DNA from: Bacteroidia bacterium
GTDB taxonomy: Bacteria; Bacteroidota; Bacteroidia; Chitinophagales; Saprospiraceae
Reading direction: 5' to 3'
Length of the DNA: 64,000 nt
NCBI GenBank assembly: GCA_030430845.1
Contig: JAUIKE010000001.1
Coordinates: 3,545 to 67,544, forward strand
Shown: one piece after another, positions 5,709 to 44,041 of the stretch
Numbering within the stretch: position 1 is the stretch's first letter
Layout of the letters: every line of letters begins with the position of its first letter
Program-made: the position numbers and the translations under genes
Notes under the pieces: model-generated
Told to the model about the DNA's origin: nothing
Seen by the model: only the letters and a program-made list of their open reading frames with translations
Databases searched by the model: none

Positions 5709-6206
5709 TTATTTTTTAGGTTTTCTTTTTTTCTTTATATGGTCTTTGAAAGCACCGGAAATGGTGCTGGGATCGATCCCATCCACCCGATCTTCCAACT
5801 CTGGCGGGAGATCTCTTTTTAATTGATCTGGTTCAATTGCGGCTAAGAGCTTAGCTATTTCAGCCCCTTCAACCGAGGTGTCCTCAAGCTCGTCCAGGAT
5901 CAGGTCATAAGTGATCAGGTAAATTTTATTGCCATCGTATCTGAGCCCTCCGGATATGATCAACTGGCCTTTTGCCTGGCGGTCGTTTTTTAGTTTATCG
6001 GCCAAATCTTTTATAGCTTCCATTACATTATTGCGCGTGGCCTTTTTGCCTTGCAGGATTTGCATATCAGAAGATCCCATCTCAAGGCGATTCATCCAGT
6101 CTTCCACCTTGTTGATATATTCGCTAAAATCGGGCAAATTACCCAGCTCCGGATGCTCATTTGCATTGATTATCAGAACATAAATTTTATCATATACTTG
6201 GCTCAT
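5709..6206 (-). CDS. truncated caspase-like paralogue lacking the catalytic His and Cys (pseudo-caspase)
   Basis: It aligns in register with aa 8-137 of the neighbouring caspase-like protein. Examples: KATRNNVMEAIKDLADKLKN vs EATLKNILRELKLLSEKTKN, and KIYLITYDLILDELEDTSVEGAEIAKLL vs KYYLVPYDFDLLIPEDTALEDSEFAKKI. The His motif SGHGY is replaced by SGGLRY. The protein ends before the Cys strand (no LLLIMDSC equivalent) and has a basic tail KKKRKPKK. It lies 27 nt downstream of the NACHT gene. Confidence 0.65.
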   Translation of the reverse strand: MSQVYDKIYVLIINANEHPELGNLPDFSEYINKVEDWMNRLEMGSSDMQILQGKKATRNNVMEAIKDLADKLKNDRQAKGQLIISGGLRYDGNKIYLITYDLILDELEDTSVEGAEIAKLLAAIEPDQLKRDLPPELEDRVDGIDPSTISGAFKDHIKKKRKPKK

Positions 6207-6233: not shown

Positions 6234-9200
6234 TTACCTATCTTCATATATCTCTTCCTGTTCCTTTGTATACAAGACAGCTCCGTAATGTAGCAGCATC
6301 TCAAATTCATTATCGGTAAGCGGTTCGATCCACTGTACTTTTGTCAGATCCAGTCCTTCCACCTTCAGCCCTGTATAATTCATGATGCTTTTTTCAAGTT
6401 TCGTATTTTCCATGTTCCATTTTTTGAGGGTCAGGTCCTGCGAGGTCGAATACAGGTATTTTCCTTCATCGTCAAAGCTCAAATCAATGATATAGTCAGT
6501 ATGGCCAATAAACTTCCTGATGTTGATTTCATTAGTATCTCGATTCAAAGTAATTTCAATCAGGCTTTTATTGGTGCCGGCCATGATTTTATTCAAATCC
6601 TTATGATAGGCTGCATAGGTAAAATACTCCTCAGTATCAGAAACATCTATGATCAGCCGTTCTTCGCGAGTATCTATATTCCACTCTTTCAACTTCCCAT
6701 CCATACCTCCCGAGAGTAGATAATTTGCTAAGACATCCATAGTAAAAACACCGTCACCATGGTCAAATTCTGCAACAGGTTTATCTTCTTCCAAATCTGC
6801 ATCCCAAACAAATAAGCGGCCATTCACCTCACTGACGATAACAAAAAATCGGTTTTCGTCGACCATGATCGCTACCTGGGTAATAGATTTCCTTACAGTC
6901 CTGGTACGATAAGATCTTATTTGTTTTCTTTCTTTCAAGGACCATAGATTGAGTCGCCCATTCATATCTCCGGAAGCGACGATCCCCGCTTTATTATTGA
7001 TAGCAAGAGAGGTTACCGTGGCTTGATGCTCTTCAAATGCCCACTTCAACTTTCCCCTCAAATCCCATATTTGAATGAGACCGTCCTCCCCAGCTGTGAC
7101 GATGCGGTCGGTTTCTCCTCTGTCAGTTTCGTAATATCCAATGGCATAAGGCGGGGAAGAAGCCTGAAGCTTGTATTTAAATGCCAGGGTATCACTATCT
7201 AATCCCTGAATGTCACCATTTTCCGAACATGCCAGCACGAATGGAGAACCAGGCATTTTGCAGATGGCATTGTAAGGGATCAGATGAGGAGAAAAAGCAT
7301 GCTCGACCTGCCCAGTAGCGGTCGACCATTTTTTGATCGAGCCGTCAAAGGAGCCGGAAAAGAAATAATTTTCATCTTTCAGGTACACGATACTGGAAGC
7401 TCGCCGGACGTGCCCTTTAAACACCTGTGTGACAGAATGCTGTCGAGCCCCCTGGGGGTCTTTTAAGGCCCATTCATAGATGTAATCATCCAGTCCTGCG
7501 ACCAATAAATATTCTCCGGACGGGCTGTAAGCCACATCAGCGCTGTAAAACTGAGGATTGTTCTTAGGTGGATTGACAAAATGAAACACTTTTTGTTCCT
7601 TGTCAAAATCTATTTTCCATTCTTTAATGATCCACTCCATACTGCCCAAAGTTCCTTCCAAAGACACGGCGACGAAGAACCTGCTATCCGGGCTCAAAGC
7701 CAGTGCGACCACATTTTTGTGAGGATACACCCTGGTTTTTATTTTGGTAAGGGTAGATATTTCGATTAAAGCTTGGTTCTTCCCGCCTACCAAAATGGCA
7801 TTTCCTCCCTTGATATACCGAAAACACTGGGCTTGCTTTCCATCCGGATAGAACCATGAGCGGCACTGCCCGTCACGAGTTGACCATTCCCCCATTTTTC
7901 CATCATCATACAGAGCCATGATGGTTGCTCCATCCGGATGATATTCTATTTGGAGGATACCGGTTTTATGGCCTCGCAGAACTTTCAATGCCTGGCCGGT
8001 TTCTACCGACCACTCGATGATTTTATTATCCAGGCCTCCGGAAGCGATTTTTTGACCATCGGGGCTGAAGGCGACCGTCCCCACTTCGTCGTTATGGCGG
8101 TGAATGCCTCCTAGGTCATGGAAATGTTCCAGGGTACTCAATTTCCACAATTTCACATGCCCTGATCGGGATGCCGAAGCTAAAATCTGACCGTCAGGGC
8201 TTAGCCTTACTACGTTCACTTCACTTTCATGGCCTTCTGAGAATAATTGCTTGGGGGCCAGGTAGCTTTCGTCCCATTTACTGTCGATGGCATAGCCCTT
8301 ATCCCCAGGCACCACTACCCGGCGACAATCGATCCCATTAAAATTAAAGCCGCTCAGGTGTAGGTCAGACAGATCGACTCCTGCAAAGCTCCCCCTCAAT
8401 TTTTTCCAGATATGCAGGATGTTCCACACACAATGGCCTATTTTTTCTTTTTCAAATATACCCCGGCAAAGATCAACCACATGGCCCAGGCTGGTTTTTT
8501 GTCTGTAATCCTCCCATTTCAATTTAGGGTTTGCAAATTCAGGCTTGTTGTAATGCTCGCCGGCCAACTCCCCCAAAGTTTTTTGAAGGTTCTCAGGAAG
8601 GACCTGATCCCTTAAAACAGAAGGGATCTCTCCTTTTTCCAAAGAAGCATTTATCTCATTCAATACATGCCGGGCTGCGAAGTATTCCTGAAAAGACTGG
8701 TGGGTAAACCTCAGGACCCAACCTTCCTTGGCAACCGGAAACAGCGCTTTGGCCAGGTCCTGGGCCAGGCGTTCAAAGCGACCAATTTCTTTGACCAAAG
8801 ACAATTCTCCGATCTGTAAATACTGGATACCCATCCGATATCTTTTGATATGACTCCGGAAACTAAATTCTTTGAAAAAATCCGGTTCGCTGAATCGATT
8901 AAAAGCTACTCTGACGATTTGTTCCAGTTCTTTTTCCGTAATCTCCTGGACTTGTGCTTTTTCCATATGGTAAGCAATGAAGGGCAGCACGTAATGAATG
9001 GTAAAATGGCATCGAGTGCGCAATTCAGCCAGTTCCTCTCCTTGAGATTCTTTTTCAAATTTATGCAACTGGATCTCCAGGTAATCCCAAATGAGCTCAG
9101 CCGTACTGTTGATCGGCCGAAGGGTATTAGGCATATCTGCCAATTGCTCATTTTGCAGGCCGGCGTATAATCGCAGCATCATCGGAATGGTCAGCAGATC

Positions 9201-10202
9201 TTTGAGATCCTCATTGATCGCATTAAATTTCTCCTCCTTTTTGTCATCTTCGAGGAATAAGTAAGCTTTGACCTGCTCTTCTGATAAAGGTATGACCTCC
9301 AGTTTTTCAAAACTTTCGGTAAATGGGTGGTTCGATTCAAAACGAGAACTAACGATCATCCTAAGGTGGCCTTTATTGGCCAAAGGGGCCCATTTTTCAT
9401 TCAGATCGATCAGTAATGGGGTAATATCCGTAGTGATCTCGTCCAATCCATCTAAGATCAAAAGCACATCTTCCAGACCGGCTTCCTTTCCTTTTATTGA
9501 ACCGTTGTTTTCACCGCTCAGCCATTTCCGTAAATTTTGTTCCGACTCACTATCCAGGCGAGGGCGTCCCAGGTAGTATTCCGCAATATATTGTGTAATG
9601 AAGTTTTCGCGAATCAATGGAGAAACCCTGTTGTATTGATTTAAGGCAATGTAAATAGGGATGATATTTTTCCCGGCTCGATTTTTCCCTTTCTTCTTAC
9701 CGCTTGAGTCCTCTTTTTCTTTACCATGTCCTATCAATTGCTTCCAGGCCCACAACAGGGATACCGTTTTACCCATTCCCCCCTCTCCGGTTAGGAAGGT
9801 ATTACGCTCGGTTTCCTGAAGGTGGTCCATCAAAGAAACGACGGCTTCTGTCTCTTCTCCTACGGTAACATTGGCCAGCAGATGCTCGCTATACTCCAAA
9901 TGTTCGAAACGACCATCAGGGCCTGTAATTCCTTCATAGAAGAAATAAGAACCTTTATTCAATAACTTAGCGATCTCCTCTACCTTCAGTCCTTGCTGCC
10001 CCTGAAAGATCTGGGTGATCTTATTACCGCCTACAATATCACCGACTGATAAATTACCGCCTCCGGTGCTGATATTCTCAAAAAAATGCCCTTTCGATTC
10101 CTTCTTGATGATGGTTTGGGAATGGTCGTGAAAATCTCTGCCGGCGACCTTATTATGATCGCCTGTTACATTTTGGTTTACGGATTGGTCTTGTTTTAAC
10201 AT
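6234..10202 (-). CDS. NACHT-family STAND NTPase with about 14 C-terminal WD40 repeats and an N-terminal Gly/Asp-rich motif (bacterial NLR-like protein)
   Basis: Walker A GEGGMGKT (aa 139-146, nt 9765-9788) and Walker B VLLILDGLDE (aa 246-255). Helical NACHT-associated region extends to about aa 640. About 14 blades end in xxxW motifs (VKLWKL, IIEWSV, MGEWST ... LKKWNM; roughly nt 6333-8240). The N-terminal 70 aa are homologous to the caspase C-terminal region. Confidence 0.9.
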   Translation of the reverse strand: MLKQDQSVNQNVTGDHNKVAGRDFHDHSQTIIKKESKGHFFENISTGGGNLSVGDIVGGNKITQIFQGQQGLKVEEIAKLLNKGSYFFYEGITGPDGRFEHLEYSEHLLANVTVGEETEAVVSLMDHLQETERNTFLTGEGGMGKTVSLLWAWKQLIGHGKEKEDSSGKKKGKNRAGKNIIPIYIALNQYNRVSPLIRENFITQYIAEYYLGRPRLDSESEQNLRKWLSGENNGSIKGKEAGLEDVLLILDGLDEITTDITPLLIDLNEKWAPLANKGHLRMIVSSRFESNHPFTESFEKLEVIPLSEEQVKAYLFLEDDKKEEKFNAINEDLKDLLTIPMMLRLYAGLQNEQLADMPNTLRPINSTAELIWDYLEIQLHKFEKESQGEELAELRTRCHFTIHYVLPFIAYHMEKAQVQEITEKELEQIVRVAFNRFSEPDFFKEFSFRSHIKRYRMGIQYLQIGELSLVKEIGRFERLAQDLAKALFPVAKEGWVLRFTHQSFQEYFAARHVLNEINASLEKGEIPSVLRDQVLPENLQKTLGELAGEHYNKPEFANPKLKWEDYRQKTSLGHVVDLCRGIFEKEKIGHCVWNILHIWKKLRGSFAGVDLSDLHLSGFNFNGIDCRRVVVPGDKGYAIDSKWDESYLAPKQLFSEGHESEVNVVRLSPDGQILASASRSGHVKLWKLSTLEHFHDLGGIHRHNDEVGTVAFSPDGQKIASGGLDNKIIEWSVETGQALKVLRGHKTGILQIEYHPDGATIMALYDDGKMGEWSTRDGQCRSWFYPDGKQAQCFRYIKGGNAILVGGKNQALIEISTLTKIKTRVYPHKNVVALALSPDSRFFVAVSLEGTLGSMEWIIKEWKIDFDKEQKVFHFVNPPKNNPQFYSADVAYSPSGEYLLVAGLDDYIYEWALKDPQGARQHSVTQVFKGHVRRASSIVYLKDENYFFSGSFDGSIKKWSTATGQVEHAFSPHLIPYNAICKMPGSPFVLACSENGDIQGLDSDTLAFKYKLQASSPPYAIGYYETDRGETDRIVTAGEDGLIQIWDLRGKLKWAFEEHQATVTSLAINNKAGIVASGDMNGRLNLWSLKERKQIRSYRTRTVRKSITQVAIMVDENRFFVIVSEVNGRLFVWDADLEEDKPVAEFDHGDGVFTMDVLANYLLSGGMDGKLKEWNIDTREERLIIDVSDTEEYFTYAAYHKDLNKIMAGTNKSLIEITLNRDTNEINIRKFIGHTDYIIDLSFDDEGKYLYSTSQDLTLKKWNMENTKLEKSIMNYTGLKVEGLDLTKVQWIEPLTDNEFEMLLHYGAVLYTKEQEEIYEDR

Positions 10203-10219
10203 AAGGTATTAGACTTGTA

Positions 10220-10250
10220 AAATCGTAAGCGCTGGTGGCGCTTACGATTT
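10220..10250 (-). promoter_or_regulatory. intercistronic stem-loop between the caspase-like gene and the NACHT gene
   Basis: Perfect 13-bp stem aaatcgtaagcgc / gcgcttacgattt with a 5-nt loop. It fills most of the 55-nt gap. On the minus strand only 4 T follow it, so it is a weak terminator at best. Confidence 0.5.
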
Positions 10251-10257
10251 CTATAAA

Positions 10258-11730
10258 TTACTTAAACCATTCCCCGACTTTTCCAGCGATCTTCTTCAAA
10301 GCCACGGCGGCACCTGCAGGCGGGTTGATGATCGTGGCAGAGATGGTTTCCAGGATATCAGGGGCATTCTCTTTTAGGGTTCCGATCCATCTTTTGAGCT
10401 TGCTTTCCTTAGGCTCGGGCTTTTGGATCTCTTGTTCGATTTTTTCGACGGTTTCCTTTAATTCTTCCCGGTCGATGTCTTCATGATCTTCGGGCCACTG
10501 CTCGACCTTGGCATAGGCTTGCTGGAAGATCTGCGCCAGCACATCTCCCGAAACGCCCTCGGTGATGGTGTTGCCCTGACCGCCCAACTGCACATTGTGG
10601 CCGCTGATATCTCCGGTTTCAAACTTATCTCCTCCGACATGATCTCCTATAGTAAAGTCTCCACCGCCCGTATTCACTCCTTCTATCATGTGGCCTCCAG
10701 AGGTTTTGCTATTATCTGTTGTAGAATTATCGGTCAGATCTCCGCCGGCCACTTTATTATGATCTCCTGCGACATTAATGTTCAGGATCTGCTCTACAGA
10801 AGGCGGCTCCTCTCCTTCCGGGATACCTTCTCCGCCCATCAGCATGGAGATATCGAATAGCTTGCCGTCGAAGCCAAAGTCGGGCTCCTGATTGGCATTG
10901 TGGAGTTCCATAGTGGTTCCGGGAACTTTGGAGCCTACATAGCTCATCACATCAAACACATTCACCATGGTCGGTTCGCCGGCTTCGGCGCGCTTGCCGT
11001 GTCCGTTCAGGGCTTCGATGAGGTGGTAGGTAAAGACGCTCATGCCCAGTCTTTCATGCAGGTAAGAGAGCTGATGCCCTTGCGAGGAGGTCAGGACGGC
11101 GCGGGAGGGCTTTTTGGGATCGGGCTCTTCTTCGCCGTTGCCACCGCCGGGTTTAGAGCCTGAAGAGCTACTACCATCTTCCTTGTTTTTTACTATTTTT
11201 GCTCCGCTTACACCAAATGCTTCCAGATTGGCTGCATGGACAGTGAAGCCTTCCGGTCCATCCGATTGACCTCCGCCGGCGGTAGTGCCTCCTGCATAGC
11301 AGCTATCCATTATCAACAATAGCCGTTGAGCCTTAATCTGATCAATTTTTTTAGCGAATTCGCTGTCTTCCAAAGCAGTATCTTCTGGAATTAGCAAGTC
11401 AAAGTCATAGGGTACTAGATAATATTTTTCGGTTTCTGAGTTTAAATAGCCATGTCCTGAAAAATAAACTAAAACTGTAGAATCAGTCTGGTTCTTAGTT
11501 TTTTCACTTAACAGTTTCAGTTCACGAAGGATATTCTTTAAAGTTGCTTCCGTTCCTGTCAGCACAACCACATTCTCTGATTGATATCCACATTTTGCAG
11601 GATCAATCAAGACTTCTTTAAGCCGAATAACATCTGTGGCTGTCTCTGGCAAGGCTGGCGCGTCGGCCGTATTTTCCTGATCGCTGACGCCGATCAGCAA
11701 AGCATATCCTTTTTCAAATGTATTGCTCAT
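10258..11730 (-). CDS. caspase-like (peptidase C14 family) protease with C-terminal Gly/Asp-rich motif and helical tail
   Basis: The caspase/metacaspase catalytic dyad context is intact: VLVYFSGH(93)GY and LLLIMDSC(144)YAGG, followed downstream by AVLTSSQGHQLSY. A Gly/Ser/acidic linker covers aa 146-205. The motif covers aa 311-404. The C-terminal 85 aa are charged and helical in character. Confidence 0.85.
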   Translation of the reverse strand: MSNTFEKGYALLIGVSDQENTADAPALPETATDVIRLKEVLIDPAKCGYQSENVVVLTGTEATLKNILRELKLLSEKTKNQTDSTVLVYFSGHGYLNSETEKYYLVPYDFDLLIPEDTALEDSEFAKKIDQIKAQRLLLIMDSCYAGGTTAGGGQSDGPEGFTVHAANLEAFGVSGAKIVKNKEDGSSSSGSKPGGGNGEEEPDPKKPSRAVLTSSQGHQLSYLHERLGMSVFTYHLIEALNGHGKRAEAGEPTMVNVFDVMSYVGSKVPGTTMELHNANQEPDFGFDGKLFDISMLMGGEGIPEGEEPPSVEQILNINVAGDHNKVAGGDLTDNSTTDNSKTSGGHMIEGVNTGGGDFTIGDHVGGDKFETGDISGHNVQLGGQGNTITEGVSGDVLAQIFQQAYAKVEQWPEDHEDIDREELKETVEKIEQEIQKPEPKESKLKRWIGTLKENAPDILETISATIINPPAGAAVALKKIAGKVGEWFK

Positions 11731-11758
11731 TTCTTTTGAATTTGGAGGTTTATAAGTG

Positions 11759-13942
11759 TTATGAAAATAGTTTAGATTTTTCGTCCCGGAGTTTGAAAGG
11801 CAAACGGATGATTACCCTGGTTCCCATACCTTCTCCATTGGTATCTTTTAGATCAATAATTTCGATTCGGGATCCTTTAATGTTACCTGATGCCTTCAGA
11901 CGTTCCTCTGTGATCTTCATTCCGTGGGACTGGTGTTTGAAAACGGAATTAGCTTTCATTTCTCTCGACCTTTCCCGTCCGATCCCGTCATCTTCGATGA
12001 TGCAGACCAGTTTTTTATCGTTCCTTTCAATTTTGATGGATACTTGTCCTTTGCCCTCTTTGGGTTTAATCCCGTGCCAGATGGCATTTTCTACATAGGG
12101 CTGTAGGATCATGGCGGGTACTTCGATCCGGTCGGTTTGTAAGCCTTCCGAAACGGCGATATCGTAGTGCAGCTTATCCTGAAACCGTAGTTGCTCAAGG
12201 TCCAGAAAGTTTTTAATGGTTTTCAGTTCATCTGTCAAACTGATATTTGGCGCTCGGGAGCTGTTAAGGATTTGTCGGTTTAATCTCGAGAATTTGATCA
12301 GGTATTTGGAAGCCGCTTCCTTATTCCCTCGATTGATCAGGCTTTCGATAGCATTGAGACTGTTGGAAATAAAATGGGGGTTGATTTGGGCTCTTAGGGC
12401 TTCCATTTGAGATTTTAATCTTTTCTGCTCGGCTCTTTGTAGGAAAAGAAGGAAAATTAGACCGGCTACAGACAATACACCCAGGCTAATCAATAATAAC
12501 TCCCTTCTCTTCCGGGCACTGGTCCGGTCATTTTCCAATCTTTCCATTTCCCGTACCCGGTAATTTGCCTCGGTAAGATTACGTGTCATTAAGTCAGCAA
12601 CTTTTTTGTAGCTTTTTGCAACATACTCTATAACATCTCCCCCAAAAATTTCATCACAATTGCCTTGCCCCTCCAATTGTTTGTCGATGCAATTTGCCAA
12701 AATATTATATGAGAGATAATCCATCATTGAAAGCACACCTTTCTCCTTTGCATCCTGGAGCGCCTTCTTATAAAAAACCAGAGCACTATCTATATAAACG
12801 TAAGCCTGATCATAATAGAAACTCGCTGAGTCTGAGTTCTCGAACTTAATGGACTTAAGATATTCGACATACGCACGTTCCGAATAGGTAATCCCTAGCC
12901 GGCCATAACTATGATATAAATCTTCATTTTGGATGGCTATTCGGTCATGAAGCACTTTTACAGCCTTTGAAAACAGGTCATTATCTCCAATTAGAAGATA
13001 TTGCCCAATTAAGGATTTGCTTTGGATTCTGTAAACCTCATTCAACAAGTCATTCTTTCTTTTAAGACTAGCCGTTGAGAAGCTTAAATCTAGCAATGAA
13101 TCAGCCTTATTATACTTCTCTTCATTTACCCAAAGCATGGCTTCATGTGCATTTAGCCTTGCTAAGCCTATTTCATTTTTGCATCGTATGTAATTTTTTC
13201 TACTTTCCCCATAATACTTTCTTGCAATCTCAACGTCCTCATTTTCAAAGGAAACACCTATATCATGTTGGATTTCTGCCACTAGATACAACGAATCTAT
13301 TTCCTCTAATCCAGAAGTTTTTAATGTTTCCAATGCTTTTTGGAAATATCCCCTAGCTGTATCCAGCTTCAAAGGCCTATCTTCCTCATACTGTCTATAG
13401 TGAATAATCCCAATCAAATCATATACCCTCACCAACCACTTCTTCTCACCTAATCGATCAAACAATAAGCGACTCATCTCCGCATCTACCAGAGCATCCT
13501 CGATTCCTCCGCCCCAAATTTGTAATCGCCGCTTCATTAGGGCGATGTAATACAGGCTAATCGCCCGTTGCAGGTCCCAGTTTTGATCAGTGGCCAGGTC
13601 ATAGGCCTGTTCGGCATAGAACAGGGCCACACCCGGGTCAAAGCCTTTTAAGCGGTCGGTCATTACCAGGAGGCTGTCTACTTGCCTGGCTTTCTTGGGC
13701 AGCTTGAGAACTGCCTCCATTACCGAGACGGTATCCACTAGGTCTTCCAGATCTTCGGTAGCGTAGTCCACTTGTCGGAAGAGCTCGTCGTCTATCCTGG
13801 GTTGTGGCTGGCAGGAGCAGAGCAAGATGAATAAAAGAAGGTAAAGCAGTTTCAACAAAAGCCCGATACGCTTGTAGCAATCGTTCACTGGAGTAATTGC
13901 GGTGGTGTGATCATATACTTGCGTAGGTGCTTCCTTGGGCAT
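11759..13942 (-). CDS. sensor histidine kinase, TPR-like N-terminal region plus LytS/YehU-type kinase core
   Basis: Lipobox-like N-terminus (LLFILLCSCQ), a long helical-repeat region and a TM segment LLLISLGVLSVAGLIFLLFL. The His_kinase motif INPHFISNSLNAIESL and HATPase_c motifs (YVENAIWHG, EDDGIG, GMGTRV) follow. No response regulator is nearby. Confidence 0.85.
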   Translation of the reverse strand: MPKEAPTQVYDHTTAITPVNDCYKRIGLLLKLLYLLLFILLCSCQPQPRIDDELFRQVDYATEDLEDLVDTVSVMEAVLKLPKKARQVDSLLVMTDRLKGFDPGVALFYAEQAYDLATDQNWDLQRAISLYYIALMKRRLQIWGGGIEDALVDAEMSRLLFDRLGEKKWLVRVYDLIGIIHYRQYEEDRPLKLDTARGYFQKALETLKTSGLEEIDSLYLVAEIQHDIGVSFENEDVEIARKYYGESRKNYIRCKNEIGLARLNAHEAMLWVNEEKYNKADSLLDLSFSTASLKRKNDLLNEVYRIQSKSLIGQYLLIGDNDLFSKAVKVLHDRIAIQNEDLYHSYGRLGITYSERAYVEYLKSIKFENSDSASFYYDQAYVYIDSALVFYKKALQDAKEKGVLSMMDYLSYNILANCIDKQLEGQGNCDEIFGGDVIEYVAKSYKKVADLMTRNLTEANYRVREMERLENDRTSARKRRELLLISLGVLSVAGLIFLLFLQRAEQKRLKSQMEALRAQINPHFISNSLNAIESLINRGNKEAASKYLIKFSRLNRQILNSSRAPNISLTDELKTIKNFLDLEQLRFQDKLHYDIAVSEGLQTDRIEVPAMILQPYVENAIWHGIKPKEGKGQVSIKIERNDKKLVCIIEDDGIGRERSREMKANSVFKHQSHGMKITEERLKASGNIKGSRIEIIDLKDTNGEGMGTRVIIRLPFKLRDEKSKLFS

Positions 13943-14107
13943 GGGTGGCGATTTTCTTAAAAATAGTAATTCATCTAATTTTTTCTAATCTTTCGTTTAA
14001 AAACATACTTAAATGTATTACATATATTTTAAAGAAAAGGCGTGGTTGTGGTAAGTGGTAAAGATTGGGTGGTAGGTGGGGAGGATTAGCGGGTAAGTGG
14101 AGAAGTT

Positions 14108-14296
14108 GACACTGGGGGCACTGTTTTTTTTGGACACTGGGGACACTGGGACCACTAGGGGCGCTGTTTTTTTTGGACACTGGGGACACTGGGACCACTG
14201 GGGGCACTGTTTCTTTTTTTGGACACTGGGAACACTGGGACCACTAGGGGCGCTGTTTTTTTTGGACACTGGGAACGCTGAGAACACTAGGGGGTT
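14108..14296. repeat. tandem repeat, about 4.5 copies of a 43-46 bp unit, in a divergent intergenic region
   Basis: Units at 14132-14174, 14175-14220 and 14221-14263, with partial copies at both ends. Consensus: GGACACTGGGRACACTGGGACCACTRGGGGCRCTG followed by a T8-10 tract. Each unit contains 9-bp sub-repeats (GGACACTGG / GGACACTGG / GACCACTAG). Confidence 0.9.
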
Positions 14297-14388
14297 GAGG
14301 GGGAAAGGGAAGTCAAAATTTCAGGATGTCAGTTAATTTTTATAAATTATGCTATTCATCAATTTTCTAATCTCAAAAACCAGATTAC

Positions 14389-14598
14389 ATGGCTATTGTA
14401 AAAGTAATTGAAGTCATTGCTTCCTCAGAAAAAGGCATTGAAGACGCCGTTGAAAAAGCGGTCAAAGAAGTCAGCAAAACCGTCCGTAATATTGATTCGG
14501 TGTATGTCAAAGACATCAAAGCCCATGTGAAGGATGGGAAGATCAGTACTTATGGAGTCATCTGCAATGTTTCCTTTAGGGTTCAGGATGACGATTAA
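14389..14598 (+). CDS. dodecin family flavin-binding protein
   Basis: The 69-aa protein MAIVKVIEVIASSEKGIEDAVEKAV...KISTYGVICNVSFRV matches the dodecin pattern: a beta strand, the SSE(K/E)G motif, a helix, then two strands. Confidence 0.8.
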   Translation: MAIVKVIEVIASSEKGIEDAVEKAVKEVSKTVRNIDSVYVKDIKAHVKDGKISTYGVICNVSFRVQDDD

Positions 14599-14602
14599 AA
14601 AT

Positions 14603-14638
14603 AAAGAAGGCGACCGAGTGGTCGCCTTCTTTATTTTA
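14603..14638. terminator. bidirectional intrinsic terminator between convergent genes
   Basis: 10-bp GC-rich stem gaaggcgacc / ggtcgccttc with loop gagt. It is flanked by an A-run upstream and tttatttt downstream. Confidence 0.75.
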
Positions 14639-15670
14639 ATTTTTTCTTCGCTTTACCGTTGTTTTCTTTTTGGCTCCTGCTGCCCTTTTATTCCCACTTT
14701 TTCCTCTCACCTTGGTAGTGGAAGTTTTTGCCTTAGCAGTTCCTTTCTTTCCACTGGCTTTAGCACTCTTCGTCGTTCGTGTACCCTGGATTTTCTTGTT
14801 ACCATTTTTACCCTGAACGGTAGTAGTTGATTTACGAACGGTAGCGGACTTATTGCCCTTAGTGACAGTAGCAGTTTTGGTATTGCGAGTCACATTAACC
14901 TTCTTATCTGCCCGGTATTTGGTAATGGAAGCGGAATGACGGGTTTTGACCGTCACGGAATGCGTGCGACGAGGCGTATAAACACGATGAGCTCTTACCA
15001 CTCTGTGGGTTGTCACCACATGGTAGTTACGAGGGTACCATACTCGTTTAACAGAGAACCAACCAAACGGACGAGGCTTCCAGGGACGCCACCATCTGGG
15101 ATAATAGCCCCAATAGTAAGGAGACCTATACACCACATAGCCAGGCCTGTATAGGTAACGGACGCTCGGCCAAAAGTATACATTGACCACTACGCGGACA
15201 TAATCATCCATTTGCGCACCACCGTGGCCGCCCCCATTTCCTTCTTCTTCAAAAGGTTCGACAATCTTGGATTCTCCAAAAATATCTTCATCTCCAAGGA
15301 TTTGGAGAATGGCTGATTCGGCGCCGTTTTTCTCGATTTCGATCACTGCGATATCCTGGGATTCTTTTTCAGAAATGACGGCTTGCAGTACAAGGGCATG
15401 AGCATCCCCATCCGCATTATCGATGACACGGATATAATCGATATCTCCATCTTCATTCAAGTCCAGGTTGTTGACGATCTTATCTTCGGTATTCAGTGAT
15501 TTTTCAAAATCTTCGAGTGACCCAGATTTCTTAAACAATTCCAGTGCTCCTTCCAGGCTAAAACCATCGCCCGGTAAGCCTGTGGCTTCTTGTTGAGATT
15601 GACCGAAAGCAAGGGCAAAAGAGCTTAGGAAAAAAATAAGGGTGAAGGAAAAAAGATGCAAAGTTTTCAT
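14636..15670 (-). CDS. secreted hypothetical protein with EF-hand-like loop and Lys/Thr-rich basic tail
   Basis: Signal peptide MKTLHLFSFTLIFFLSSFALAFGQ. Calcium-loop-like DLNEDGDIDYIR. Aromatic/Arg-rich middle (YYWGYYPRWWRPWKPRPFGW). C-terminal ~110 aa are K/T/A/G-rich and low in complexity. Confidence 0.7.
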   Translation of the reverse strand: MKTLHLFSFTLIFFLSSFALAFGQSQQEATGLPGDGFSLEGALELFKKSGSLEDFEKSLNTEDKIVNNLDLNEDGDIDYIRVIDNADGDAHALVLQAVISEKESQDIAVIEIEKNGAESAILQILGDEDIFGESKIVEPFEEEGNGGGHGGAQMDDYVRVVVNVYFWPSVRYLYRPGYVVYRSPYYWGYYPRWWRPWKPRPFGWFSVKRVWYPRNYHVVTTHRVVRAHRVYTPRRTHSVTVKTRHSASITKYRADKKVNVTRNTKTATVTKGNKSATVRKSTTTVQGKNGNKKIQGTRTTKSAKASGKKGTAKAKTSTTKVRGKSGNKRAAGAKKKTTVKRRKN

Positions 15671-15912
15671 GTTTGATTTTTTTTCATTTTAGACTATCAG
15701 AAAACTTATTGGTTTAATTCGATTCATTTTTTTTATACATAATTACAAAAATCTGGAATTTTTTTTCGTTTTTGACATCTAATTACGAATTATATTAGCC
15801 TTATCAGACCTAAGCATTAAAAAATATTAAAATCCACCCGCCGAAGATGGGATGATTTTCTATTACTTTTTAATATCGGAGCTAAAAAGGCCGAACACAT
15901 ACTACAAAACTC

Positions 15913-16785
15913 ATGGAAGCAAATTTTTTGACGACTGTATTACTGCCTGGTTCTCTATTTATTATCATGCTCGGAATGGGTTTGTCTTTGAGTATTGATG
16001 ACTTCAAAAGAGTGGTTCAATATCCCAAAGGAGTCATGGTAGGTTTATTCAATCAAATGATCCTGCTCCCCATCATTGGGCTGTTACTAGCCATTACATT
16101 TAAGCTCTCTCCTACTATGGCAGTTGGATTGATGATCCTGTCGGCCTGCCCGGGAGGAACAACCAGTAACTTGATCACGCACGTCGCCAAAGGAGATACC
16201 GCCCTGTCTATTAGTCTGACCGCCATTGCCAGTTTTATTACGGTTTTCACGATACCCTTGATCACGAACTTTGGTCTGAATTTCTTTTTAGAAGAATCGT
16301 CCAGGATCAGTCTGCCATTTTTAAAGACTATTGCTCAGATAGTTGGTATCACCGTATTGCCTGTATCTATCGGCATGATCATCAGGAAACGCAACAAAAA
16401 TTTTGCCGACCGGATGGAGAGGCCCGCCCGCATTGCTTCCACCATTATTTTTGTAACGATTCTCATGCTCATCGTTGTGAGCAATTGGACTATGCTGATT
16501 ACTACCATCCAGCAAATAGGCCTGGTTTGTTTTGTCTTGAATGCGGCTACTATGCTCACCGGTTATCTGGCCGCCAGGTTATTTAACTTTGAGTTAAAAC
16601 AAGCTTTGTCCGTAATAATAGAAAGTGGCATACAAAACGGCACCCTGGCGATTGTGGTGGCCAGTTCTATATTGCTACAGCCCGAGATGGCTATTCCGGC
16701 TGCTATTTATTCCGTGTTTATGTTTTTATCGGGGGGCCTGATCATGTTTGTTTTTGGAAGGCGTAAGGCACCGGCACTGGCCTAA
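15913..16785 (+). CDS. bile acid:sodium symporter (BASS/SBF) family transporter
   Basis: About 9-10 hydrophobic helices and the family-typical SACPGGTTSN motif. Confidence 0.85.
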   Translation: MEANFLTTVLLPGSLFIIMLGMGLSLSIDDFKRVVQYPKGVMVGLFNQMILLPIIGLLLAITFKLSPTMAVGLMILSACPGGTTSNLITHVAKGDTALSISLTAIASFITVFTIPLITNFGLNFFLEESSRISLPFLKTIAQIVGITVLPVSIGMIIRKRNKNFADRMERPARIASTIIFVTILMLIVVSNWTMLITTIQQIGLVCFVLNAATMLTGYLAARLFNFELKQALSVIIESGIQNGTLAIVVASSILLQPEMAIPAAIYSVFMFLSGGLIMFVFGRRKAPALA

Positions 16786-17048
16786 ACAGCCTAAATAAGG
16801 CATCTGGTTTTCTATAATTCAGTCGATTTTAAAAAAAATAAAATTAAATTAGGTATATTAGGATAACACTATTTTTTATTCCCCAAAAACATGGTTATTG
16901 TGAAATATTATTTTCATAAAAAAATGCAATAGGTAAATCAACAGGAGCCTCGCAAAAAACACATCCACTACAGATTAAAGAAAGGTACCCCAGGCAAGAG
17001 ACAGAACTTAATACAATCCATATTCATTACCTTATCTCCCATTGATTT

Positions 17049-17636
17049 ATGAAAAGTAAAACCGATAAAAAAGAGAAAAAATGGATTAAAAAGCTGGCCA
17101 AAGGAGATGAACGGGCTTTTCAAAAGATATATGAAAAGCATTGGGAGCAATTATATCTGGCTGCCTACAAAAGACTAGACTCCTCAACAATTGCCGAGGA
17201 ATTGGTCCAGGATCTTTTTATGGACCTTTGGACCAAAAGAGCTTCTGTCAATATAAGAAGCTCGCTTGGTGCCTATCTCGCCGGTGCCCTAAAATATCGA
17301 ATACTAGACCATATGAGGCACCAGCTTGTAAGGGAAAAATACATCCGCCACCTTACTCAGTATTACATTACTGAAAAAAATGAGGTACTGGAAAATATCT
17401 ATTCACAAGATTTGCAAGAACAACTGCAACTTGCCGAAAATCAGCTTCCTCCACGCTGCTATACCATTTATCAATTAAGCAGAAAGCATCACTTCAGCAA
17501 TAGAGAAATTGCGGAGCATCTGGAGATTTCCACTAAGACCGTCGAAAACCAGATCACCAAAGCTTTGCGGATGCTGCGCACCCATCTGACAAAGGTGTCT
17601 ACCCTATTCTCTTTAATAGGAATGCACTGGTTCTAG
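17049..17636 (+). CDS. ECF-type RNA polymerase sigma-70 factor
   Basis: Sigma-70 region 2 (FQKIYEKHWEQLYLAAYKRL ... DLFMDLW) and a region 4 HTH (FSNREIAEHLEISTKTVENQITKAL). It immediately precedes the FecR-like gene. Confidence 0.9.
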   Translation: MKSKTDKKEKKWIKKLAKGDERAFQKIYEKHWEQLYLAAYKRLDSSTIAEELVQDLFMDLWTKRASVNIRSSLGAYLAGALKYRILDHMRHQLVREKYIRHLTQYYITEKNEVLENIYSQDLQEQLQLAENQLPPRCYTIYQLSRKHHFSNREIAEHLEISTKTVENQITKALRMLRTHLTKVSTLFSLIGMHWF

Positions 17637-17734
17637 AAAGACAAAAACACATTTTTTCATTTTTTTTTACTTCTGCATAGGGGTACGCCCCTATTTAGCC
17701 GACTATTTAATAAACCATACAAACAAAGTTCTTC

Positions 17735-18694
17735 ATGTCATTAAAAGAATTGGAGTCCAGGATTAGAAAGTTTTTAAGTGGCCATAACAGCCCACAAGGC
17801 CGAAAATTGTTCGATCAGTGGTATGACTCATTCGACAATCAAAACGCATCCCTCTCCCATGATCAGAAACATCAGATAAAAAAACGGATGTATCAAAACA
17901 TTCAAAGCCAGATGGAGGCTTCAAAAACACGAAACAAAGGCTCTCAAGCATTAAGAAGAAGACTTATTACCGCTACGAAGGTTGCCGCAAGTATCGCTTT
18001 GATCGTTTCAGTCCTTTGGGGTGTCCAGCGGTGGAGTGCTCAGGAAATGCTCATTCACCAAACAGCATTTGGAGAAACCAAACAGCTACAATTACCCGAC
18101 GGCACCATCGTCAACTTGAATGCCAACTCCAGTCTTCGTTATGCTGGCAACAATCCGCGGGAAGTCTGGCTGGAAGGGGAAGGCTTTTTTGAGGTAAGGA
18201 AAAAACCAAGGACAAAAGCCGTTTTTTTGGTTCATACTCAAGATCTCGTCATCGAAGTATTAGGAACGGCCTTCAATGTCAATAGTCGACATGAAAAAAC
18301 CGAGGTCGTACTGGAAGAAGGTAGTATTAAACTCAACCTTGAAGATGGAAAAGAGGAGATGATGGAGCCCGGTGATCTGATTGCGTATTCCGGTAAAGAG
18401 GCCAGGATATTGGAAAGGGATACAGCCGTATCAACTGAAGTGCACAGCTCCTGGAAAAACGGCACCATTCTCTTAGATCTGACTACATTAGATGAGGCTA
18501 CACAAAAAGTGGCGGATCATTACGGAGTAGCCTTCAAATTCGGCACGAACAGCCTCAAAGAAAAGGTGATGAACGGAGGGGTGCCTATGGACAACCTTGG
18601 TGTAAGTCTTCAGATGTTAGAAATAACCTTCAGTATACAAATTGACCAAAAGGGCTCCTATTACCTGATCACACAGGATGAGGGTCCCCAATAA
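17735..18694 (+). CDS. FecR-family anti-sigma factor / transmembrane sensor
   Basis: Cytoplasmic N-domain, a single TM (VAASIALIVSVLWGV) and a periplasmic FecR domain (LPDGTIVNLNANSSLRY ... GEGFFEV). It sits between the ECF sigma and STN-SusC genes. Confidence 0.9.
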   Translation: MSLKELESRIRKFLSGHNSPQGRKLFDQWYDSFDNQNASLSHDQKHQIKKRMYQNIQSQMEASKTRNKGSQALRRRLITATKVAASIALIVSVLWGVQRWSAQEMLIHQTAFGETKQLQLPDGTIVNLNANSSLRYAGNNPREVWLEGEGFFEVRKKPRTKAVFLVHTQDLVIEVLGTAFNVNSRHEKTEVVLEEGSIKLNLEDGKEEMMEPGDLIAYSGKEARILERDTAVSTEVHSSWKNGTILLDLTTLDEATQKVADHYGVAFKFGTNSLKEKVMNGGVPMDNLGVSLQMLEITFSIQIDQKGSYYLITQDEGPQ

Positions 18695-18770
18695 GCTTTA
18701 CCCCTGTAAGGATAAAACACTGTTTTTACCGTAAAGAAGGGATAGTACTTAAAATCTAAAATCTTTGTGT

Positions 18771-21700
18771 ATGAAAACTTTTAAACCGTGCTACTTAAGC
18801 ATTTTGCTTATCTTTTTACTGGCGCAGCTGCCACTGCAGCTACCGGCCCATAACCATGAAGTTCCCGAAGAGGGCACCAAGCCCCTTATCGAAGCTTTAA
18901 AAGAATTAAGTGAAAAATTCCAGGTATTTTTCACCTATGATGTTTCCTTGGTCAAAAATATTGAGGTAGCAGACAAGCCCCTGGAGCAGGCTAACCTCAA
19001 GTTTATAATTGATGACCTATTAGCAGATACCGGCTTAAAATACGAACTGCTCGATACCCGGTATTATGTAATTTATAAAGACACAAAGAAGGGAAAGGGC
19101 AGCGTCAAAAAGATCCGCAAAAAAATGAAGCAGATCAAAAAACTGGAGGATTCCGGCAATCTGCGCCTTCAAAGGACCAGCCCAAATGATCCGGTCAACC
19201 AGCTGACGAGCCTTCAAACAAGCTTAAAGGAGCTTACCTCGGACGTGACCATTACCGGTACTGTTACGGATGAAGAAGGCGTTCCTCTGATCGGAGCCAC
19301 CGTTCAGGAAATTGGCACCACTAATGGAACACTGACCAATGCCGATGGCGATTATTCTATTGATGTAGCGGACGGAGCTACCCTCGTTTTTTCCTATGTG
19401 GGATACAATCCACAACAGGTACGGGTAACGGCTGGGACCACCGTTATCGACATCACGATGACCGAAAACGTTTCTGCGCTTGATGAGGTTGTAGTAGTTG
19501 GATATGGCCGCCAGCAAAAAAGAGATATTACAGGCTCGGTAGCCACTCTATCCGCTCAGCAAATTGCAGACCTTCCGCTGTCCAATTTTGAAAATGCTAT
19601 CCAGGGGCAATTAGCCGGCGTGCAGGTGAGTGAAACCAGTGGAGAGCCCGGTGCAGGACCTACCATTCGGGTAAGAGGAGTGGGTTCCATCTCCGCAGGA
19701 AATGAACCCTTGTATGTTATTGACGGCTTTCCTATTTCAAAAAATGTAGATCTTGGGGTGCAGGGAGATAACTTCCGCCGCGGAACCGGGCGTTTCCGTC
19801 CTCCTTCTCAAAACCCACTGGCCACCCTCAGTCCCAATGATATCGAATCTATCCAGGTACTCAAAGATGCCTCCGCTGCCTCTATTTATGGCTCCAGAGG
19901 GTCCAATGGGGTTATCTTAATTACCACCAAAAGAGGAAAACGCAAAGGAAAACCGCGTGTTTCCTACGATGCCTTCGTAGGAAGTCAGTCGGTAGCGAAC
20001 CGCCTGGATTTAATGAATGCAGAAGAACTGATCGATTATAACCGAGACGCGACTAACAACGCCTACCTCGATAATAATCCCGGAGCCAGCCCCAGTGATC
20101 CGAATTCAATGAGGTCTAATGCCGCCTGGCGACTGTCCGATGATGTACTGAACCCGGATGGGACGGATACCGACTGGCAGGATGAAATGTTCAGTACTGC
20201 CTTACTTCAAAGCCACAATCTTTCCGTAGCCGGTGGTTCAGACAATATGAGCTACTACGTGTCCGGCAACTTTTACAATCAGGACGGCATTATTAAAGGT
20301 TCCGGCTTTGACCGATACAGTTTTCGTCTGAACCTGGAGGCGGATCTTTCACAAAAAATGAGATTGGGTGTTAATCTGAATCCTTCTTTCACTACTTCAG
20401 ATAAACTACCTGCCGGATCGCCCTACTTTGCCCGTCCTCCGGGAATCGTTTATTCCGGTATCGTGCATTCACCAACCGTAAAGCCCCGCAACCCAGATGG
20501 GACTCCTAACCAGTTGGATAATCAGAGTTACTTGCTGACACCCGAAGGAGAAGCTTCTTCTTTCACCTCGGCCAGTAATCCTCTGGCTATTATGGAAGCT
20601 ATTGATGACCAGTTGAACCAATTTAGGACCTTAGGTAATCTTTCACTTGAATATGATCTGGCAGAAGGCTTGACCTTTAAAACTTTCCTTGGCATCGATA
20701 TAAATAACTACAAGCGTAACTTCTTCCGCAAGAACAGCCTGTTGTATAGAGAGGCGGCCACCGGAGAGCCCTATGGCCAATCCAGTTCTTCAGAAAGTGT
20801 CAACTGGCTGGCGGAGCAAACTCTGACCTACAGCACCACTTTAGGAGACGGTCACAATATCACCGCTTTGGCTGGCTATACCGCTCAAAAAGAAAAGATC
20901 GACATTAATAATGTGATTGCAGATAACTATCCGGATGACCTCGTACCGACTGTCAGTGGAGGCCAGGTAGTAAATGGTTCGGCTGACCAGGAAGAATGGT
21001 CACTGGTATCCCTACTCGCTCGTATCAATTACGATTATAATGACCGCCTCTTGGTGACTGCCTCTTTCCGTTCTGATCGTTCTTCCCGTTTCGGAGCGGG
21101 TAATAAAACGGGGATATTCCCGTCTTTCTCCCTGGGTTATCGAATATCTGAGGACATTGGCGCCACTTGGTTAAGCGATTTGAAATTAAGAGCCAGTTGG
21201 GGAAAAACAGGGAACTTCCTGATCCCGAATTATGCTTCTATCGGTTTGTTAGGTACTTATAATTATACCTATGGAGGCACTCTTAACAATGGAATTGCAC
21301 CATCCACGATCAGCAACCAGGATCTGAGTTGGGAAAAGACCAGTTCGTACGACATTGGAATTGATTTTGGTTTCTGGGATGACAGAGTTTACGGTTCTGT
21401 AGAGTATTATAATGCTACTACCTCTGATCTCCTGCTGGAAGTCCAGGTTCCTGCCGCACTTGGTTTCACCAATGCTTTGACCAACATAGGCGAGGTGGTG
21501 AATAAAGGGATTGAGTTTTCTTTGACCAGCCGCAATACGGTCGGCAAATTCAAATGGACAACGGATATCAACTTCTCCACGCTAAACAACGAAGTAACCA
21601 AATTAGGGCCGGACGGAGCACCTATCCTGAGTGCCGGTGGAGCAGGCAACCGCCACATCACCATGATCGGAGAGTCGATCGGTAGTTATTTCGGATATGT

Positions 21701-40129: not shown

Positions 40130-40278
40130 GTATTATCATTTGTGTGTTTCAGAAAATTGATCTCATAGAATAAGGATGGAGGAAAAAATTTTATAAACAA
40201 TCTGCGTAGGATCTATTATAAATATTCTTCTGAGAAATATTGCTTAATTCTTTCAAAATATGGCATAGTAAGATATTA

Positions 40279-41388: not shown

Positions 41389-41427
41389 TAGCAATATTGT
41401 TAAATTTGTAAAAGGCTATTTGCTCCT

Positions 41428-42639: not shown

Positions 42640-42667
42640 AGAGTAAAATTAAATGCCGGTTTGTTTT

Positions 42668-43768: not shown

Positions 43769-44041
43769 AAAAAATGGTTTATGCGTTTTTTCAAAAAATC
43801 GATATTCACCACCCATGCGGGTAGTTAGAGCAAGATAAATTGAAAACTGCCTGGTTAACTACAGAAGTTGTTTAAAGTTAATAAATTTCTTTAAGCTGTT
43901 TTATTATTTTTGTTAAATATAGAACGGATTTAAACATTTGGGCCGGCAGCTGCCCCATGTCTTCATTAACTTCGATCACAAAGCATTAAATAGCACTATA
44001 CTATGAAATTATTTCAAATCACCTGCCGTAAAACCATTGTT

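Follow-up and report, generated by a model that had tools for sequence, protein, structure and literature searches.

A stretch of 64,000 nucleotides (nt) from contig JAUIKE010000001.1 of a Saprospiraceae assembly (GCA_030430845.1), called the window throughout, carries on its minus strand four consecutive genes that encode a LytS-type histidine kinase, an active caspase of the orthocaspase type, a NACHT-like STAND NTPase with WD40 β-propellers, and a small protein of 165 amino acids (aa), p165, which is the subject of this analysis (Table 1). The caspase and NACHT-WD40 genes make up an apoptosome-like conflict operon of Saprospiraceae-like Bacteroidota, in which p165 occupies a variable third slot. 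The 727-aa and 490-aa genes are separated by 28 nt, the 490-aa and 1322-aa genes by 55 nt, and the stop codon of the NACHT-WD40 gene and the start of p165 by 27 nt. No promoter- or terminator-like site was found in this last gap, which makes co-transcription of p165 with the operon the simplest reading. The gene of an M1 peptidase, located 113 nt downstream of p165, is probably unrelated to the caspase operon.

The same arrangement, p165 included, is present in two independent public assemblies (L001 and L002 among the loci compared), which excludes an assembly artefact; one other assembly shows no difference along its entire 1,004-nt overlap with the compared region and the other has 99.83% identity over 4163 nt. 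Between the window and L001 a single nucleotide differs in p165, resulting in a nonsynonymous but conservative change towards the family consensus (Y5F, consensus F5), while all six differences in the NACHT-WD40 gene (6/6) are synonymous and fall in third positions; with one nucleotide changed in p165, the strain differences are too few to judge the gene. The codon usage of p165 in its frame lies at the 90th percentile of real-gene windows of the same genome and its discrimination against the other frames at the 99th percentile, and the open reading frame (ORF) is not an old neutral remnant.

Table 1. Features of the p165 operon in the window and proteins with the SGAFKD motif in related loci (HMM, hidden Markov model; pLDDT, predicted local distance difference test)
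Feature	Position	Strand	Length or residues	Basis, remarks or motif copies
p165 coding sequence	5709..6206	-	165 codons + stop	ORF list; third gene of the caspase/NACHT-WD40 operon
Half-caspase domain of p165 (β1-α1-β2-α2-β3, L3 hairpin, α3)	5820..6206	-	aa 1-129	BLASTP, hhalign, clade HMM, AlphaFold2, Foldseek
Site of the catalytic-His motif SGHG in p165, His absent	5946..5954	-	S85-G86-G87	Alignments, translation
Tail of p165 in place of β4-β6, first part acidic	5712..5819	-	aa 130-165	Translation; pLDDT 51-65
SGAFKD motif of p165, one copy	5742..5759	-	S150-D155	Coordinates checked; common to third-gene products of related loci
Polybasic C-terminus KKKRKPKK of p165	5712..5735	-		Translation, tail comparison
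NACHT-like STAND NTPase with WD40 β-propellers	6234..10202	-	1322 aa	Pfam matches, motifs
N-terminal adaptor segment of the NACHT protein	10020..10190	-	aa 5-61	Matches caspase mid-region
Active caspase/orthocaspase	10258..11730	-	490 aa	PF00656 E=9e-18; PF19971 (TCAD2) E=9e-14
Caspase domain	H93 at 11452-11454; C144 at 11299-11301	-	aa 1 to ~300	Dyad checked
Adaptor segment of the caspase	10624-10794	-	aa 313-369	Matches NACHT N-terminus
TCAD2 domain of the caspase	10276-10536	-	aa 399-485	PF19971
LytS-type histidine kinase	11759..13942	-	727 aa	PF06580 E=1e-22; directly upstream of the caspase gene
Motif protein of the window	p165		165 aa	TISGAFKDHI
Motif protein of L003	L003:19244-19564		106 aa	VSGGLKDEL, SIGGIKNEP, GVGGFKDFMR
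Motif protein of L004	L004:17287-17487		66 aa	ASGPFKDANMA
Motif protein of L065	L065:8002-8559		185 aa	SISAYKDKL, MSGAYKDDL, MSGAFKDDF, MSGGYKDDFKDDF (MSGGYKDDF)
L004 pseudo-caspase	L004:11655-12716		353 aa	AAFKDDAF, VGAFKDDF in acidic tail

p165 as a truncated and catalytically dead caspase relative

An earlier note on this DNA, made without database searches, had aligned p165 by hand with the N-terminal half of the neighbouring caspase through such blocks as IYVLIINAN, ATRNNVMEAIKDL and YLITYD, and had described it as a dead paralogue of that half. BLASTP and the alignments of the family confirm this register, and the relationship itself is upheld by homology, by comparison of folds and by the loss of the catalytic dyad. 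In the BLASTP alignment, aa 1-129 of p165 are paired with aa 1-137 of the caspase over 137 columns with 29% identity (50.4 bits, E=3e-12). The profile-profile comparison that had been proposed came out positive as well: hhalign, with an alignment of 48 caspase sequences from which p165 was left out as the target, matched aa 1-130 of p165 to positions 1-138 of the caspases with a probability of 97.9% (E=3.2e-13), and an HMM of 81 caspases of the clade scored p165 at E=5.4e-12. On the other hand, neither PF00656 (even at E<=1) nor the NCBIfam and PADLOC models matched p165. By homology p165 thus belongs to the peptidase C14 superfamily without reaching the PF00656 or NCBIfam cut-offs, and only clade-specific profiles detect it. 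Its insertions and deletions are in frame and the pattern of the hydrophobic core is kept, despite a divergence of ~70% of the half-caspase part from every relative.

A model of p165 was built with AlphaFold2 on an alignment of the caspase family (mean pLDDT 77.7, predicted template-modelling score (pTM) 0.79, with a pLDDT of ~80-93 over most of the domain, aa 11-120). It comprises β1 (aa 7-14), α1 (28-40), β2 (45-52), α2 (58-74), β3 (79-84), a hairpin (88-97) and α3 (104-121). The top Foldseek matches of the model were the MALT1 paracaspase, metacaspase-4/9 and caspase-9/3, in alignments of ~120 columns at ~3 Å with E from 2e-4, and in the viral library the caspases of giant viruses came out on top. 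As the input alignment consisted of caspases, the model is supporting rather than independent evidence.

The catalytic residues are gone. S91-G92-H93-G94 of the caspase pairs with S85-G86-G87 of p165, where, according to the aligner used, the His is either replaced with Gly or missing, and there are no cysteines in p165 at all. The alignment with the caspase stops at DQL129, directly before the strand LLLIMDSC144 (β4) that carries the catalytic Cys. On each of these points the earlier note had been right: SGG stands at the SGHG position, p165 diverges just where the caspase has LLLIMDSC144, and what follows is an acidic stretch with a KKKRKPKK tail (KRDLPPELEDRVDGIDPSTISGAFKDHIKKKRKPKK). With neither a His-Cys dyad nor the Cys strand, p165 is not an active C14 peptidase; it belongs with the neighbouring caspase to the orthocaspase/metacaspase-like family, as a catalytically dead, truncated member of half length.

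The extent of the truncation can be gauged from the order of strands in the caspase sheet, 2-1-3-4-5-6, with the His after β3 and the Cys after β4, and from the minimal caspase/haemoglobinase fold, which consists of strands 2-1-3-4 plus α1-α3 (both as given in PMC4357240). p165 keeps only strands 2-1-3 and α1-α3, lacks β4-β6 altogether and thus stays one strand below this minimum. Compared with the definition of pseudo-orthocaspases, a p20-like domain in which the His-Cys dyad is substituted and which has no p10 (as worded in PMC6426788), it shows the lost dyad and has no p10, but contains only about the first 60% of p20, and it is a fragment of a pseudo-orthocaspase rather than a typical member of that group.

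Several searches were made for the missing half. The other two frames downstream of p165 aa 129 contain no caspase sequence, and a frameshifted pseudogene was rejected, as no frame-shifted caspase continuation follows. The p165 tail has no significant similarity to aa 291-490 of the caspase, and tblastn in the regions after the NACHT genes of other loci revealed no hidden half-caspase. MAFFT placed SGAFKDHI of the tail under the caspase helix SIFTYHLIEAL, which we judged to be spurious since a full-length pseudo-caspase from a related locus (L004, see below) has both that helix and the tail motifs.

A short motif in the third-gene slot

The only part of p165 that is shared with the third-gene products of related loci is its C-terminal SGAFKD, which the earlier note had overlooked. 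In four syntenic loci (the window, L003, L004 and L065, which are the closest ones in which the region downstream of NACHT-WD40 is available and occupied), the third-gene products are otherwise unrelated small proteins with one to four copies of S-G-[AG]-[FY]-K-D (Table 1). p165 has both features of this group, the position downstream of the NACHT-WD40 gene and [S/G]-G-[AGP]-[FY]-K-D near the C-terminus. The distance from the preceding NACHT-WD40 gene to the small motif gene is 27 nt in the window, 35 nt in L003, 55 nt in L065 and 362 nt in L004. The pattern G[AGP][FY]KD occurs at 9 distinct sites in 1.19 million six-frame residues of 66 loci, 7 of these 9 being in proteins of caspase/NACHT-WD40 clusters, and, when a looser pattern is applied to the same 66 loci, motif proteins are the only ORFs shorter than 450 aa with two or more copies. 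The N-termini of the motif proteins are mutually unrelated (the half-caspase, a low-complexity segment, a short basic segment and an unrelated region of ~100 aa), which indicates that the conserved, presumably functional element of the third-gene slot is the motif, while the half-caspase is peculiar to the species of the window. The polybasic KKKRKPKK of p165 has no conserved counterpart among the motif proteins of other loci.

In L065 and L003 the motif gene is followed by genes of a patatin-like phospholipase and of a second, short, dyad-bearing caspase (L065:8599-10805, L003:19664-21479). The second caspase belongs to another subfamily and has no adaptor segment, and the pair, which may be an executioner module, is absent from the window.

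The motif differs from the adaptor segments by which the caspase and the NACHT protein are matched to each other. Aa 313-369 of the caspase are 54% identical to aa 5-61 of the NACHT protein (57 aa, BLASTP E=1e-17); the segment is rich in Gly, Asn and Asp and follows the pattern GDHNKVAG.D…TGGG(D/N)…GD.VGG(D/N)K. Matched caspase-NACHT pairs of this kind are also found within L003, L004 and L065, with segments that differ between loci, and no other copy comes as close to the caspase segment as the one at the N-terminus of the adjacent NLR. The paired segments look like a homotypic adaptor or an amyloid-like signalling pair, which would recruit the caspase to the oligomerised NTPase. An exact 7-mer, IGGIKNE, is common to the caspase and the 106-aa motif protein of L003. 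Mimicry of the caspase-NACHT adaptor was nevertheless rejected as a general explanation of the motif because the adaptors differ between loci and the motif is constant; for the same reason, its partner should be a conserved surface, such as the caspase active site, TCAD2 or the NOD/WD40 body.

Among these surfaces the caspase can be characterized in terms of its probable specificity. The profile of its family is closest to metacaspases, with a match to metacaspase-4 at E=3.7e-10; its D142-S143-C144 lines up with the DS(C) motif in metacaspase-9 of Arabidopsis, and D142-x-C144 is invariant in the family alignment. In the structure of TbMCA2, the Asp located two positions ahead of the catalytic Cys reportedly contributes to the metacaspase S1 pocket. 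Given the metacaspase-like profile, the invariant D142 and the cleavage after basic residues described for orthocaspases (PMC6426788), the caspase is expected to be specific for Lys/Arg. In addition, a conserved Lys (36/41 occupied rows) is located in the L4 loop of the caspases, between the Cys strand and β5, in the context G-[AS]-K-G-L, which in the Saprospiraceae-like clade reads S-G-S-K-P (aa 203-207 in the window, at ~11110-11125; columns 318-320 of alignment A3). It occupies the position of the processing site of caspases and is similar to S-G-A-F-K of the motif, and we regard it as a candidate autoprocessing site.

Origin and possible roles of p165

p165 shares 18-31% identity with each member of the family, the neighbouring caspase included (29%), and this equal distance means that it is not a recent local duplicate; a recent tandem duplication of the neighbour was rejected on this ground. 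The alternative raised in the earlier note, a decayed duplication that is still translated, remains viable. The loci available for comparison came from a scan of genomes (48 loci, few of them close relatives) and a scan of metagenomes (2 loci). Relatives of p165 itself were sought by a word-indexed search of 5.8 billion clusters and by an exhaustive HMMER search of 1.84 billion representatives; neither contained a p165 orthologue outside its own species, and what they returned was the same-species copy, one full-length caspase orthologue and one spurious cystatin-repeat protein.

Among 126 aligned members of the family, the His is kept in 124 and the Cys in 123, and both are lost only in p165 and in a full-length 353-aa protein of L004, which has SGNG for SGHG and DTAHAG for DxCHAG. 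The gene of this pseudo-caspase is located between the active caspase and NACHT-WD40 (in the order histidine kinase, caspase, pseudo-caspase, NACHT-WD40), and the protein fits the definition of pseudo-orthocaspases (as worded in PMC6426788); a search of the 5.8-billion-cluster database returned only the protein itself. Like p165, it carries GAFKD at its tail and is encoded in a syntenic histidine-kinase/caspase/NACHT-WD40 locus. The L004 protein ends with PPNTDVGAFKDDFPRR and p165 with DPSTISGAFKDHIKKKRKPKK, and the tails align as IDPSTISGAFKD and LPPNTDVGAFKD better than 99.4% of shuffles (p ~0.006). A sister relation of the two was sought by a neighbour-joining tree with bootstrap, which leaves p165 on a long unresolved branch and does not group it with the L004 protein. 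In the scenario that we propose, a full-length, dyad-less caspase with the tail motif, similar to that of L004, would have lost its β4-β6 half to give rise to p165. Such a descent of p165 from a tailed pseudo-caspase may be inferred, short of proof; since the tree does not place p165 beside the L004 protein, an origin by internal deletion draws its support solely from the tail that they have in common and from the lost dyad.

As to function, p165 has the appearance of an accessory protein that carries the motif, or of a relic, and not that of a dimer partner of the type of cFLIP. The reading to which we give preference, with a probability of roughly 40%, is that p165 is a lineage-specific carrier of SGAFKD in the third-gene slot and a pseudo-substrate or regulator of the Lys/Arg-type caspase. 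The half-caspase would now be mainly a folded carrier for the motif, whose aromatic-Lys-Asp would resemble a cleavage site of the Lys/Arg-specific caspase. In that case the motif proteins would serve as competing substrates or pseudo-substrates that buffer the protease or set its threshold or, in a variant of this scheme, as its first physiological substrates once the NACHT-WD40 sensor assembles. The chance that they are substrate-like competitors or first substrates of the caspase we put at about one in three. What favours the caspase as the partner of the motif is the combination of the invariant aromatic-Lys-Asp, the protease of Lys/Arg type encoded in the operon and the conserved Lys of its L4 loop.

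A number of observations weigh against this preference. p165 has been found in one species only, and its sole polymorphism is the nonsynonymous Y5F, compared with 6/6 synonymous differences in the NACHT gene. The caspase-like shape of its model is partly circular, and a three-strand protein without β4, smaller than the minimal fold, may be of doubtful stability. Kinship with the L004 pseudo-caspase is not supported by the tree. The contact between motif and caspase is a proposal made from sequences, and the clade's own L4 site reads K-P, an unfavourable context for cleavage, and lacks the aromatic residue. Finally, L054, whose NACHT-WD40 protein is 45% identical to that of the window, has no third gene, hence the third-gene component is dispensable.

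Part of this evidence speaks for p165 being a translated relic, namely a pseudo-caspase or caspase gene that has lost its 3' half, is still co-transcribed, has no function, and retains the motif merely because the truncation is recent. We consider this rather unlikely, but a serious rival. Its grounds are that p165 is an orphan, with only the same-species copy and full-length caspases as relatives in both large databases, and that the third gene is absent from L054 and highly variable in content between loci; the nonsynonymous polymorphism and the size below the minimal fold point the same way, as does the lack of all known interaction modules of the system. Against it, p165 keeps an intact frame of 165 codons in which, at ~70% divergence of the half-caspase, the insertions and deletions are in frame and the core pattern is preserved, ranks in codon usage within the top 10% of the window's real genes, changes conservatively towards the family consensus, and retains at its C-terminus the one element that is conserved across four loci. 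The motif could also have another target than the caspase. If SGAFKD were a linear ligand for the WD40 propellers of the NACHT protein or for another conserved surface, the third-gene products might be guardees or autoinhibitory ligands, whose loss, cleavage or displacement in infection would license assembly of the NLR. Apaf-1 is controlled by a ligand through its propellers, and short motifs repeated within acidic, disordered sequence are typical of propeller-binding linear motifs. In agreement with this, the small motif genes of the four loci directly follow the NACHT-WD40 gene at its 3' end, which encodes the WD40 part, the short motif occurs in one to four copies within acidic, probably disordered sequence, and its constancy against differing adaptors calls for a conserved surface. 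However, the related NACHT-WD40 gene of L054 lacks such a companion, and an invariant Lys in an operon with a Lys/Arg-type protease fits a protease site at least as well, so that we find this alternative unlikely.

The analogy with cFLIP, which had been put forward in the earlier note, would have p165 heterodimerise with the domain of the active caspase and inhibit or modulate it, and we hold it to be highly improbable. It draws on the presence of a dead caspase-fold paralogue in the same operon as an active caspase and on the existence of pseudo-enzymes that regulate active paralogues, such as cFLIP and TbMCA4 (PMC3220528). A role of this type, however, requires both recruitment and pairing of domains, and p165 has neither a recruitment or adaptor module nor a complete domain with β6; a segment that matches the N-terminus of the adjacent NLR is present only in the 490-aa caspase. 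According to PMC4357240, dimers of caspases and paracaspases form along β6, a strand that p165 lacks together with β4 and β5, and the closest solved relatives, structurally characterized type I metacaspases, are monomers (PMC4357240, PMC12914765). Moreover, p165 is devoid of the adaptor segment and TCAD2 that lead to the NACHT platform, whereas cFLIP keeps its DEDs, and the same slot in related loci is filled by proteins without any caspase domain. With the dyad and the dimer strand both missing, and with a size below the minimal fold, the analogy is poorly supported.

Comparison with known systems places p165 between several precedents. cFLIP and the pseudo-caspases of animals are, like p165, dead paralogues tied to an active caspase and an oligomeric platform. 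cFLIP has kept its DEDs for recruitment along with an entire caspase-like domain that pairs with caspase-8, but p165 has no recruitment module, no β6 strand and no minimal fold, hence the likeness is conceptual only. Truncated caspase isoforms and the CARD-only and pyrin-only decoys are likewise short products derived from a pathway that damp death or inflammasome activation, and these decoys work by means of the homotypic recruitment domain that they retain; in p165 it is the opposite part that is left, a fragment of the catalytic domain, with no recruitment domain. The closest precedent for a dead paralogue that engages a live enzyme is TbMCA4, an inactive metacaspase which is reported to interact with an active metacaspase in the course of being released by the cell (PMC3220528); unlike p165, it is eukaryotic, has a full-length domain and is released extracellularly as a virulence factor, with no NLR context and no SGAFKD-like motif in that account. 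In bacteria, 8.6% of orthocaspases are given as pseudo-variants with the His-Cys dyad lost (Klemencic et al. 2019, PMC6426788), i.e. prokaryotic C14 proteins of the kind to which the full-length L004 protein belongs. A caspase-TCAD2 protein beside a repeat-bearing STAND NTPase is shared with described STAND conflict systems, and the matched caspase-NLR segments correspond both to the 'EAD principle' (Kaur et al. 2020, PMC7159879) and to the gene-pair pattern of NLR-associated amyloid BASS motifs (Dyrka et al. 2020 preprint, 10.1101/2020.01.06.895854); the portions of these two papers covered here mention neither a truncated dead caspase nor an SGAFKD third gene, and p165, unlike the EAD and amyloid partners, carries no adaptor segment. 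As far as these sources extend, dyad-less bacterial orthocaspases (PMC6426788) and caspase-STAND systems with matched adaptors (PMC7159879) are thus already known, while a stand-alone ORF of half a p20 in such an operon and the third gene with the SGAFKD motif are apparently new.

The caspase/NLR systems of bacteria are regarded as related in evolution to the apoptosome and the inflammasome, and how they are held in check is the question to which p165 and its counterparts pertain. Should the SGAFKD proteins control the protease or the sensor, no built-in brake or threshold device would have been described for a system of this kind before them, and a peptide of 6-8 residues with an invariant Lys would provide a simple experimental handle; if p165 is a relic, it illustrates the decay of a pseudo-caspase with persistence of a linear motif. 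A bolder suggestion, which we regard as speculative and unlikely, is that the SGAFKD proteins form an undescribed class of operon-encoded regulators (threshold-setting pseudo-substrates or WD40 ligands), in which p165 would be a decoy, a dead half-caspase fused to or retained on the motif, and a prokaryotic functional analogue of cFLIP and CARD-only proteins that arose via truncation of the domain rather than through a retained recruitment domain. The practical value is limited, since p165 is restricted to one species and the motif to a handful of metagenomic loci.

Variation among the neighbouring genes

The 1322-aa protein of the window exhibits a P-loop (GEGGMGKT at aa 139), a Walker B motif (LLILDGLDE at aa 247) and many matches to WD40 and other β-propeller families of Pfam, with a weak NACHT match below the cut-off (E=8e-4). 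Its relationship to the caspase takes different forms in other loci. In L003 a single caspase (10001-11479) with two consecutive adaptor segments is followed by two NACHT-WD40 paralogues (11565-15305 and 15319-19209); the caspase segment ITVGNISGGTSQIGGRNNTQTV matches the first of them (FNIGNISGGINQIGGQGNTQIV) and IIGGIKNEGISTGGGDF the second (GIINKGINTGGGNF), and one effector thus appears to be wired to two sensors. A metagenome-assembled genome of Saprospiraceae combines the caspase domain with the NACHT-like NTPase in a single fused ORF of 1216 aa (L006:9203-12853). In a contig of Anaerolineae (L005:7498-14792), the genes after that of the caspase with TCAD2 encode MazE/PIN, a NACHT protein whose C-terminus is of the FGE-sulfatase (formylglycine-generating enzyme-like) type, a reverse transcriptase and bAvd, i.e. 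a diversity-generating retroelement appears to be coupled to the sensor. Between its adaptor segment and TCAD2, the caspase of the window carries another stretch (aa 373-390, 10561-10614 on the minus strand, GDISGHNVQLGGQGNTIT, including NVQLGGQGN) with a phi-Q-phi-G core similar to the RHIM / PP / BASS3 amyloid signature (G-phi-Q-phi-G) known from NLR-associated motifs, of which the NACHT protein of the window has only a loose counterpart (ITQIFQGQQG).

A histidine kinase gene upstream of the caspase is also found in L003, L004, L056-L061 and L063-L065, that is in every close (Saprospiraceae-like) locus in which the upstream flank was recovered. The kinases are ~705-730 aa long, except for 533 aa in the low-coverage and apparently frameshifted contig L064, and the gene is kept even in loci whose caspase lacks both TCAD2 and a NACHT partner. 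This neighbourhood may reflect shared ancestry or a functional link. Elsewhere in the window, a block of low guanine-cytosine (GC) content on the minus strand (39026-43816, 33-38% GC compared with ~45% elsewhere) contains four tandem paralogous genes for proteins of 367-403 aa, all of which match DUF5128, a six-bladed β-propeller.

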